Part shown: positions 59,040 through 60,719 of the stretch, piece after piece
Numbering within the stretch: the stretch's first letter is position 1
How the letters are laid out: every line of letters starts with the position of its first letter
From: Eledone cirrhosa
Lineage: Eukaryota
Direction of reading: 5' to 3'
Assembly: GCA_964016885.1 (NCBI GenBank)
Contig: OZ024743.1
Span: 245,148,001-245,212,000, forward strand
DNA length: 64,000 nucleotides
Position numbers and translations under genes: made by a program
The notes under the pieces: model-generated
Database searches by the model: none
Seen by the model: the letters and a program-made list of their open reading frames with translations, nothing else
Told to the model about the DNA's origin: nothing

Positions 59040-59254
59040 TAAATCAAGTAAGTATGTTTTGAAACAGTGAGCAGGTTTGAAATTAGAAAATAGAATAGCT
59101 TTCACCGTATTTTTGACTAAAGGAATTTTAGCCTGATAATGGGGTTTAGAACCCTCAGATAAATGGAAAAAGATGAGTATTGACGTACATGTACGTCAAT
59201 ACTCATCTTTTTCCAGGCTAACATTCCTTTAGTCAAAAATACGGTGAAAGCTAT
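59040..59254 (-). mobile_element. (TA)n-embedded fold-back element
   Basis: Perfect 26-bp-arm palindrome at 59164-59215 centred on GTACA|TGTAC, outer arms at 59095-59135 / 59214-59254, and a single-copy tail at 59040-59094. Confidence 0.7.
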
Positions 59255-59279
59255 ATATATATATATATATATATAATAT

Positions 59280-59431
59280 ATCCCGGGTTCAATCGGGGTT
59301 AACCACAGTAAATAAGGTACTCAAACATAGTAGAGTATATACAATATTTAATGTATAAATGGCTTCTACAGGACTAGAACTGTTTCCTTCGAATGAAACA
59401 GTTCTAGTCCTGTAGAAGTCATTTCTATATT
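59280..59431 (-). mobile_element. (TA)n-embedded fold-back element with a hammerhead-like 3' half
   Basis: Arms at ~59350-59386 / 59395-59431 around loop CTTCGAAT; each arm begins GAAACAGTTCTAGTC. Confidence 0.7.
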
Positions 59432-60557
59432 ATATATATATACTTGTATATATAACATTCTAAATAATTTGACTGACGATTTAGACTAGCAAAATTGAAT
59501 AATAGTGAGCATTTTAAAAAAGCCGGTAATGATGCAACAATATTAAAAGAGGAACTGATAATTTTTCTTTTTCAATAAATAAAGAACAATTCTTACCGTC
59601 AAGTGACATACGGACCCAACACAAGCTTGTTTGAGAACACAAGCTTACAACAATAACAGTAGCAACTAAGGTAGACTTACTAATAACAGCTAGCTAGGTT
59701 CTCTCTCCCTTTCTCATGCAGTCTGCTAATAACTCACTTCTACAAGTGATTAGCCCACTAAGTCAATCAGTCCCAGATAAGGAATAAATGAGAGAGAGAA
59801 AGAAAGACAAGGGGGAAGGGAGAAAGACAAAGACGGGAGAAAAAGAGGGGGAGTAAGAGAGAGACAAGAGGAGCGAGTAAAGAGAAATGGTAGGAGGAAA
59901 TGGTAATAATGAGGGAGAAAGAGGTAGAAAAGAAAAAAAAGGTTAAATTACTAACAAATAATAAAAGTGAGGCAGGAAAGAAACAACAAACATGGTAGAA
60001 ATAGAACAATCTGAAAATAACTTTTAGCCAAGAGAGGAGGAGGAGGTTGTTGCAGGTTTCAGTGACAGATAGATAACAATATTAAAAATTTCTTTTAACT
60101 TAGGCAGGAGGCCAATTTTTATGGAATGGAACTGTACACAGTCGGTTTTCGGTTAGCAAAGCCCTATAAACCTTCTCGTATATTCAAGTAAAAGTAAAAT
60201 CAGCCGTTGTACGCAATGTTTTAATTGATTGTAAATTTTTAAAAAAGGAGCCGATCGCCAGATCGGGCTAAAGAAACAATGTTTCCATTGGTCTTTAAAT
60301 TGTTGATACTATTTGCCGGTTGCAACTTCTAGCAAACCGAGTAACGTGTAATAAAGTAGTTTTCTCAAGAAAACAATAAACAACCCGGTTCAGGAATCGA
60401 ATACACAACTTTATGATCGTGAATCCAACACCCTAACCACGAGGTCATATGCTTGTAATTAAAAAGGCGATTGAAAATAAAATAAAATAAGGCGAAAAAT
60501 ATGTAGTTAAACGCAAACATAACTCATTTACGGATATATATATATATATATATATAT

Positions 60558-60719
60558 ATAGGAAAAAGTTTAACCCCGACGGCAGAGCGCAAGCCGTAGA
60601 AACGGCTTGCGTTCTGCCGTCGGGGTTAAACTTTTTCCTATTACCCACTCTACTACCCTAAATATTGAGTACTCTGGTGCGTTATGTTCCATCTGGTTCC
60701 TTACCACACTTCCTTCGTT
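60558..60719 (+). mobile_element. (TA)n-embedded fold-back element with a hammerhead-like 3' half
   Basis: 40-bp arms at 60558-60597 / 60602-60641 with loop AGAA; GAA-ACGGC-TTGCGTTCT-GCCGT-C forms stem III plus GUC. Flanked by (TA)n. Confidence 0.72.

Follow-up and report, generated by a model that had tools for sequence, protein, structure and literature searches.

Short head-to-head ends of Hydra-clade Penelope-like elements and a tRNA-containing repeat in Eledone cirrhosa: palindromes probably made by twin priming

The window analysed here, a stretch of 64,000 nucleotides of the Eledone cirrhosa genome, contains three palindromic elements, named 59040, 59280 and 60558 after their start positions. 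All three are flanked by (TA)n on both sides, and each consists of an inverted arm without a tail and an arm with a tail. This common architecture had been pointed out in an initial annotation of the window and is confirmed. The annotation overlooked the Penelope-like identity; an inverted repeat together with a tail has long been described for Penelope-like elements (PLEs).

The 59040 element has arms at 59095-59135 and 59214-59254. Its tail-bearing arm (59045..59191, minus strand) corresponds to the last ~145 nt of a 259-nt unit that contains a tRNA, and its 3' end lies at (TA)n. The tail-less arm (59188..59254, plus strand) ends at an inner start site between GAAAGC and TAT; compared with other copies, a hairpin of this arm is lost from the window sequence by a 30-nt internal deletion between CA microhomologies. 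The axis is CATG (59188..59191), which is self-complementary over its 4 nt, has no loop and marks the boundary between the tRNA T-stem and the 3' strand of the acceptor. It is also the most frequent junction in the 59040 family. The AC-AUGUAC-GUC at 59188, previously read as a hammerhead stem III, is the tRNA T-stem plus acceptor 3' strand.

In the 59280 element (arms at 59344-59390 and 59391-59437) the tail-bearing arm at 59279..59386 is again on the minus strand, which is the sense strand of the tail arms in both of these elements. It carries GAAAC, stem III, a GUA site, the stem I 3' strand and the tail, forming a Hydra-type PLE 3' end. The tail includes an ACUC...GAGU hairpin (59319..59336, minus strand) in which this copy lacks one base of the usual GUAUU. 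The tail-less arm (59383..59432, plus strand) has both strands of hammerhead stem II and extends 12 nt more 5' than the tail arm. The arms overlap at the junction by TTTC/GAAA, and cleavage is predicted after 59414.

The 60558 element has arms at 60558-60597 and 60602-60641. Its tail-less arm (60558..60597, minus strand) has its outer end at a fixed inner start site, between TTTTCC and TAT. The tail-bearing arm (60599..60719, plus strand) runs through GAAAC, stem III, a GUC site (60619-60621), the stem I 3' strand and a 77-nt tail into (TA)n, and it represents the 3' terminus of a Hydra PLE unit of 3,189 bp. Here the reading of GAAACGGC...GCCGUC at 60599 as a true hammerhead stem III holds. 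The tail hairpin, ACUC-UAC-loop-(G>A)UA-UU-GAGU, is at 60647..60670 on the plus strand. A fourth head-to-head Hydra end occupies approximately 49158..49470 and, as had been noticed, has the same bulged ACTC/GAGT hairpin (49238, minus strand). It keeps CUGAUGA in both arms (49344 minus, 49441 plus), with the junction ~50 nt upstream of the core. The element represents another Hydra family; ends resembling it come after Hydra ORFs in the retrieved loci L435-L454.

On its motifs, the 60558 element is assigned as the 5'-truncated head-to-head end of a Hydra-clade PLE. Longer copies of its family run into a pyrimidine-rich 3' region and then into an ORF. Locus L157 contains a whole unit of 3,189 bp from core to core, in which a single ORF with reverse transcriptase (RT) and a C-terminal nuclease lies between direct repeats. 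This ORF is broken by a frameshift and stops; its motifs are RLRWR (RWK with K changed to R), SDKT and YRDD. The CxCX5C linker (CNCPDRSTC) and CxxC..CxH (CNLCSEE..NKK..CKH) are intact in the sister copies L159 and L160, and CCHH is absent from the nuclease as judged by eye. The published account of the Hydra clade gives as its marks a C-terminal GIY-YIG-type nuclease without CCHH, RW[K/R], DKT, CxCX5C, a hammerhead in the repeats and (TA)n (Craig et al. 2021, PMC8557442), and an octopus member, Hydra-1_Obim, is in the supplement of that paper. The L157 ORF aligns with eight full-length database homologues of 693-756 aa with the same motifs. Pfam returned no match for five ORF fragments and no family above the cut-off for three homologues. 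A Naiad identity, guessed from YRDDGL, was rejected because the nuclease is C-terminal.

The hammerhead of the 60558 family has a type I fold with a U3-A8 core and a long stem II. It is a putative ribozyme known from its sequence, and its activity is presumed. The UUGAAAA core was found in 49 of 70 reads of this site (loci repeated), and stems I and II covary between subfamilies. A U3-A8 hammerhead variant has been published for PLEs of Schistosoma (PMC4209133). A search of the window's genome with the Hydra nuclease gave 58,813 first-look candidates, of which 150 were scored. The genome holds several Hydra families; U3-A8 cores are seen in some (L405, L436) and open frames of 700-950 codons in some.

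The 59280 element is likewise classed, from sequence features, as the 5'-truncated head-to-head end of a Hydra-clade PLE. Its family has a canonical hammerhead, CUGAUGA..GAAA..GUA, with a covarying stem I (GGCUUC/GAAGCC vs AGAUUC/GAAUCU). This covariation fixes stem III as ACAG/CUGU with GUA as the cleavage triplet, and the stem III previously read as ...CUAGUC at 59395 has to be given up. In L485 and L487, a long microsatellite-rich 3' region connects a sister subfamily, whose end is 83-87% similar, to a Hydra ORF. In the exact 59280 subfamily, shared upstream sequence (~100 nt) is present in only 2 of 66 copies, so that an ORF-bearing parent of this very subfamily is presumed. The idea of a stand-alone 136-nt RNA, suggested by a set of 30 copies of which 0 had shared upstream sequence, was dropped since long forms exist. 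As had been expected, longer relatives of both hammerhead elements have the core and stem I that these lack, and in addition an RT/GIY-YIG ORF. The proposed loss of the CUGAUGA half applies to the 60558 family, where 8 of 62 reach the core, but not to the 59280 family, where at least one arm extends to CUGAUGA in 46 of 65 insertions.

Several other arrangements of these ends were seen. One Hydra family, at L485 (~3300-7560), has a 3' region made up of several kb of mixed TA/TG microsatellite inside the element. L489 (700-9850) is an array of at least nine Hydra 3'-end units of ~1.08 kb, each with a hammerhead, a tail and a TA run. L226 and L227 (~1480-1890) have a minisatellite of ~60-75-nt pieces from the 59280 hammerhead region, and L181 (~960-1170) has a partial tandem of the 59280 family, in which the tail end is followed by ~45 nt of continuation and the hammerhead again, possibly a ~180-nt unit.

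The tails of 59280 and 60558 share ACTCTACTA...TTGAGTAC, as the annotation had noted (local alignment p 0.002-0.003, 1000 shuffles). Between the two start sites, the 59280, 60558 and 49158 families and others have a hairpin of the form ACUC-NNN-loop-NNN-YY-GAGU, and changes in its inner stem are compensatory (UAC/GUA, CAG/CUG, CAA/UUG). Since the descriptor matches once in the window and 0.7 matches are expected in shuffled sequence, the hairpin is supported by where it lies and by its covariation rather than by being rare. The end of an autonomous Hydra copy falls immediately before the hairpin or else 45-80 nt beyond it; the tRNA unit does not have it. The hairpin is a candidate binding site for the enzyme.

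Copy numbers were estimated by exact-motif searches of the window's own genome (3.0 Gb) with a 19-mer for the 60558 family and 22-mers for the 59280 and 59040 families, counting arms rather than insertions. There were 23,495, 7,164 and 1,784 matches, respectively, and reversed-pattern controls gave 0 for all three motifs. Family copies have 3' ends fixed at TA repeats and variable 5' ends. TA repeats follow 47/52 tail ends in the 60558 family and 45/64 in the 59040 family against a flank background of 6.5%, which bears out the suggested (TA)n preference. About 13 of the 17 tail ends in the 59040 family that lack TA are read-through into the next unit (by eye). In the 59280 family, scored with an anchor that falls ~6 nt short of the end, 3 TA and 10 CA were counted among 40 tails; by eye, most reach TA or CA within 10 nt.

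The 59040 family is of a different kind. Its longer copies are head-to-tail repeats of the 259-nt unit: among 210 arms from all fetched loci, biased sets included, 29 contain two unit anchors and three contain three. The tRNA was recognised by ARAGORN and by Rfam (41.2 bits, gathering threshold 29), and an extra helix of ~20 bp is predicted to close it. It sits inside the unit rather than at its 5' end, and arms continue past it into the unit before. No hammerhead was detected in the 259-nt unit, either by Rfam on the dimer or by a descriptor on both strands that recovered 7 of 8 positive controls, and no convincing twister or pistol motif was found. An HDV-like fold was rejected since the loose descriptor match occurs on both strands and P2 does not form. 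The claim that all three families derive from ribozymes therefore stands for 59280 and 60558, truncated retro-copies of hammerhead RNAs, and fails for 59040, which has a tRNA at its axis. A tRNA-derived SINE was also rejected, because the tRNA is internal instead of a 5' head and the copies are multimeric.

Variants recur between adjacent units of an arm: 25 pairs gave a count of 9, compared with 1.5 for shuffled pairs, whose maximum was 5. This is as expected of a circle or of a homogeneous tandem source. The 3' ends start within a longer RNA, since the next unit contributes 2-4 nt to the end of some copies. At L091, a tail arm of the 259-nt unit is joined head-to-head to a tail-less Hydra arm via a short inverted piece of the ORF. 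Mobilisation of the tRNA unit in trans by Hydra enzymes is likely; it rests on the insertion signature, this single chimera and a likeness that is weak (p <0.001 to 0.13 depending on the copy). A partner of the tRNA unit was sought through the Hydra nuclease search; of its 150 scored hits, 20 were extended, and these contained no match to the unit. Whether the unit might be a hammerhead remnant is a lead only, suggested by its likeness to the loop II hairpin of 60558 (p 0.13 for one copy, 0.03 to <0.001 for three others). A stop at m1A58 was rejected: A58 is unchanged in 90/90 read-through arms, and the ends peak at -143/-144, not -148. Diverged relatives of the unit (L178 ~750-950; L441 ~780-890; L165, L343, L353) keep a hairpin of the GGCUA/UAGUC type before the inner start, with changed pairs, and loop II of the 60558 hammerhead has a hairpin similar to it.

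Other repeats were observed nearby and in the genome. Window positions 36196-36352 contain a 76-nt near-perfect inverted repeat outside a TA run; its UUGAUGA..GAC-AAAAC is loosely hammerhead-like, and its miRNA matches are all sub-threshold. tRNA-like SINE copies are at 18017-18080 (Rfam tRNA 29.9 bits) and 46556-46613 (28.1 bits), and a SINE-like repeat at 60950-61120 adjoins the 60558 element. L436 (~3750-5400) has a 310-nt tandem with a canonical type I hammerhead, a non-LTR retrozyme that is head-to-head at its start; relatives are present in L270, L279 and L387.

Arm geometry was examined in 210 loci taken in genome order from the first 100 matches per exact motif. Removal of 15 duplicates left 195 insertions, a few apparent segmental duplicates being retained, and arms of at least 16 nt were mapped on single natural reference copies. 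The insertions comprise 134 with two arms, 57 with a single arm and 4 unresolved. One tail-bearing and one tail-less arm are paired in 126 of the 134 two-armed copies (p 2e-28 vs 50:50; by family 47/48, 40/44 and 39/42). The end of the tail-less arm lies at +20 relative to the cleavage site in 40 of the 47 pairs from the 60558 family. Among the single arms, 25 of 57 are tail-less with an undetected partner.

At their 5' ends the two arms are often unequal. Seven alignments in the tRNA family were over-extended and were corrected. With these corrections, 53 of the 126 pairs have a tail-less arm that extends >5 nt further 5', 29 have a tail arm that does so, and 44 are equal to within 5 nt. An excess above 30 nt belongs to the tail-less arm in 31 pairs and to the tail arm in 4; among pairs with both arms extending past the inner start, 37 have the longer tail-less arm and 29 the longer tail arm. 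This asymmetry is soft as a statistic, because tail-less arms shorter than 16 nt may hide undetected among the 57 singles; such arms weaken it and leave the 53 non-nested pairs standing. Outside the sample, the tail-less arm is ahead by more than 1 kb in L108 and by ~5.4 kb in L485 (~6.1 vs 0.7 kb). Perfect palindromes make up 9 of 39 tRNA-unit pairs.

Junctions show an overlap in 69 of 134 cases. In the two hammerhead families, arm ends within 10 nt of GAAA are rare (7/110 and 17/109); most lie at -50 to -34 (79/110) and at -47 to -36 (74/109), and few arms end at the cleavage site. A fold-back axis close to GAAAC is thus a property of the window's two hammerhead copies but not of their families. 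In the 59040 family, 49 of 106 arms end at -150 to -136, the T-stem/acceptor spot. The two arms of an insertion share subfamily variants far more often than shuffled pairs do (30, 25 and 28 against means of 8.1, 10.2 and 4.8, maxima 17, 20 and 16, in 35, 29 and 30 insertions), implying one template or one source. One insertion (L397) has arms with different subfamily marks.

The reading that we consider probable is that 59280 and 60558 are short head-to-head ends of Hydra PLEs, that 59040 is a tRNA repeat likely mobilised by Hydra enzymes, and that twin priming is the likely origin of each palindrome. It is built on the observed family identity, ORF links, two fixed outer ends, one-of-each pairing, independent 5' extents and shared variants. 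We infer an order of cutting and priming that would begin with cleavage of the two strands of a (TA)n run by the enzyme; one cDNA would start at the outermost end of the tail and the other, on the opposite strand, at the inner site of the same template, which may be one RNA or two RNAs of one source. Both cDNAs would head for the RNA 5' end, often stopping at a place specific to the family: just beyond hammerhead stem II (60558), at the base of stem I (59280) or at the tRNA 3' end (59040). The two cDNA 3' ends would then be joined, about half of them via a short overlap, and filled in. Two RTs working on one RNA would demand strand displacement. It is reported that purified Poseidon PLE in vitro cuts and extends both strands, starting at two sites that bound the tail (PMC11167929). 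In the available portion of that paper, the start site is the same for both strands and a pairing rule is not reported (PMC11167929).

The main rival, which we hold to be unlikely, is that a tail-bearing cDNA copies itself from its stop back to an inner TA-like site and that later deletion or resection of the unstable centre makes the pairs lopsided. A similar self-priming idea has been put forward, and head-to-head palindromes of rotifer Penelope were interpreted in this way (PMC3846280). Variants common to both arms fit fold-back and twin priming equally, and the 44 symmetric pairs and the perfect palindromes of the tRNA unit are also obtainable by fold-back; recurring palindromic junctions such as CATG point the same way. 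However, fold-back of a tail-bearing cDNA cannot by itself give the 53 pairs with the longer tail-less arm, because the inverted arm must be nested in the tail arm, and a tail-less cDNA is unable to make a tail. Secondary loss would be required in all 53 pairs, of up to 5.4 kb and mostly from the first-strand arm. Further, the inner end is sharp and is the sole end in long copies and in single ones; CATG is a loop-free junction, and two families are joined at L091. The general fold-back at the hammerhead 3' half that had been proposed is therefore not sustained, the 59280 element of the window itself being a case with the longer tail-less arm.

That the short palindromes are miniature elements, transcribed and copied ready-made with junctions recurring by descent, is very unlikely. 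Junctions at the same coordinate do recur in some copies, and the 1.08-kb unit forms the tandem array in L489. Yet junctions and outer ends differ among copies, either arm may be long, and the commonest stem I variant, TCATACTT, is common to short (52) and long (3/9) arms. Assembly or library artefacts are hardly credible: while no contig spans a whole element in three short-read runs of one sample, private mutations and deletions distinguish the arms, the one-of-each rule is obeyed, the published PLE structure is matched, and some short-read contigs carry strand-switch joints at the 59040 element and continue into the tRNA and CUGAUGA.

Twin priming bears on the origin of PLE inverted repeats and their optional tail, for which self-priming is the published guess; the in vitro study stops before the later steps. 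Thousands of very short natural copies provide a sharp, testable rule of one arm per start site, the same template and independent lengths. The tail hairpin offers a candidate protein-binding structure whose pairing is conserved by compensatory changes across several families. If mobilised as suggested, a tRNA-containing multimer would extend the known cargo of PLE enzymes past hammerhead retrozymes. For annotation, such copies resemble MITEs or microRNA hairpins (Rfam miRNA matches are sub-threshold only), yet they are retro-copies. A bolder combination is doubtful, though conceivable: the 259-nt unit would be a Penelope passenger of a new class, an RNA circle devoid of a ribozyme, in which the tRNA closed by the ~20 bp extra helix replaces the hammerhead as the signal for transcription or circle formation and around which the Hydra RT rolls, and obligate twin priming from two start sites would make all Penelope inverted repeats and tails.

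Twin priming of L1 yields an inversion when the second strand of the target primes at an internal position of the same RNA; only a minority of copies show it, the sites vary and there is little overlap. Here, in contrast, double priming appears to be the default, its site is fixed and the duplicated arms are long. tRNA-derived SINEs have a tRNA-like region with A and B boxes. The 259-nt unit differs in having a mid-unit tRNA followed by a T5 run, in its multimeric and head-to-head copies and in 3' ends that begin inside the RNA.

As far as the published Hydra PLEs are described in PMC8557442, the elements reported here resemble them in the listed motifs, the hammerhead, (TA)n, the inverted 5'-truncated copy and the optional tail. 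They differ in tail length (60-90 nt rather than 30-40 nt), in units of at least 3.2 kb, in a very high copy number and in the dominance of very short double arms. Anolis Poseidon (Frangieh et al. 2024, PMC11167929) is similar in that two internal start sites bound the tail, both strands are extended and uncleaved RNA is used; in the accessible text, its priming in vitro is non-homologous and head-to-head joining is not described, whereas ends here have TA overlap. Non-LTR retrozymes are non-coding head-to-tail units of 170-400 nt thought to be mobilised by PLEs, and the 259-nt unit matches them in size and multimer form (PMC7229834; bioRxiv 10.64898/2026.07.22.740005). Retrozymes are defined, however, by a type I hammerhead in each unit (PMC7229834), and the 259-nt unit has a tRNA and no detected hammerhead. 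Non-autonomous Chlamys elements such as MRC1 are likewise non-coding PLE passengers that form head-to-tail multimers, in a clade without hammerheads, but they are green-algal and share their 3' ends with an autonomous partner, and a tRNA is unmentioned in the passages on them (PMC8557442).

PLE inverted repeats (pLTR), tails, hammerheads, (TA)n targeting, non-autonomous multimers and the self-priming proposal are already published in what these sources present (PMC8557442; PMC3846280; PMC7229834). Neither obligate one-of-each arm pairing in PLEs nor a tRNA-bearing PLE passenger was found in the literature searched, with Repbase and most subscription papers outside the search, and the term "twin priming" is absent from the PLE papers checked. 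The elements are otherwise largely of a known kind; what is new here is the one-of-each pairing rule, the bulged hairpin conserved in the tails and a putative PLE passenger that carries a tRNA and apparently no ribozyme.
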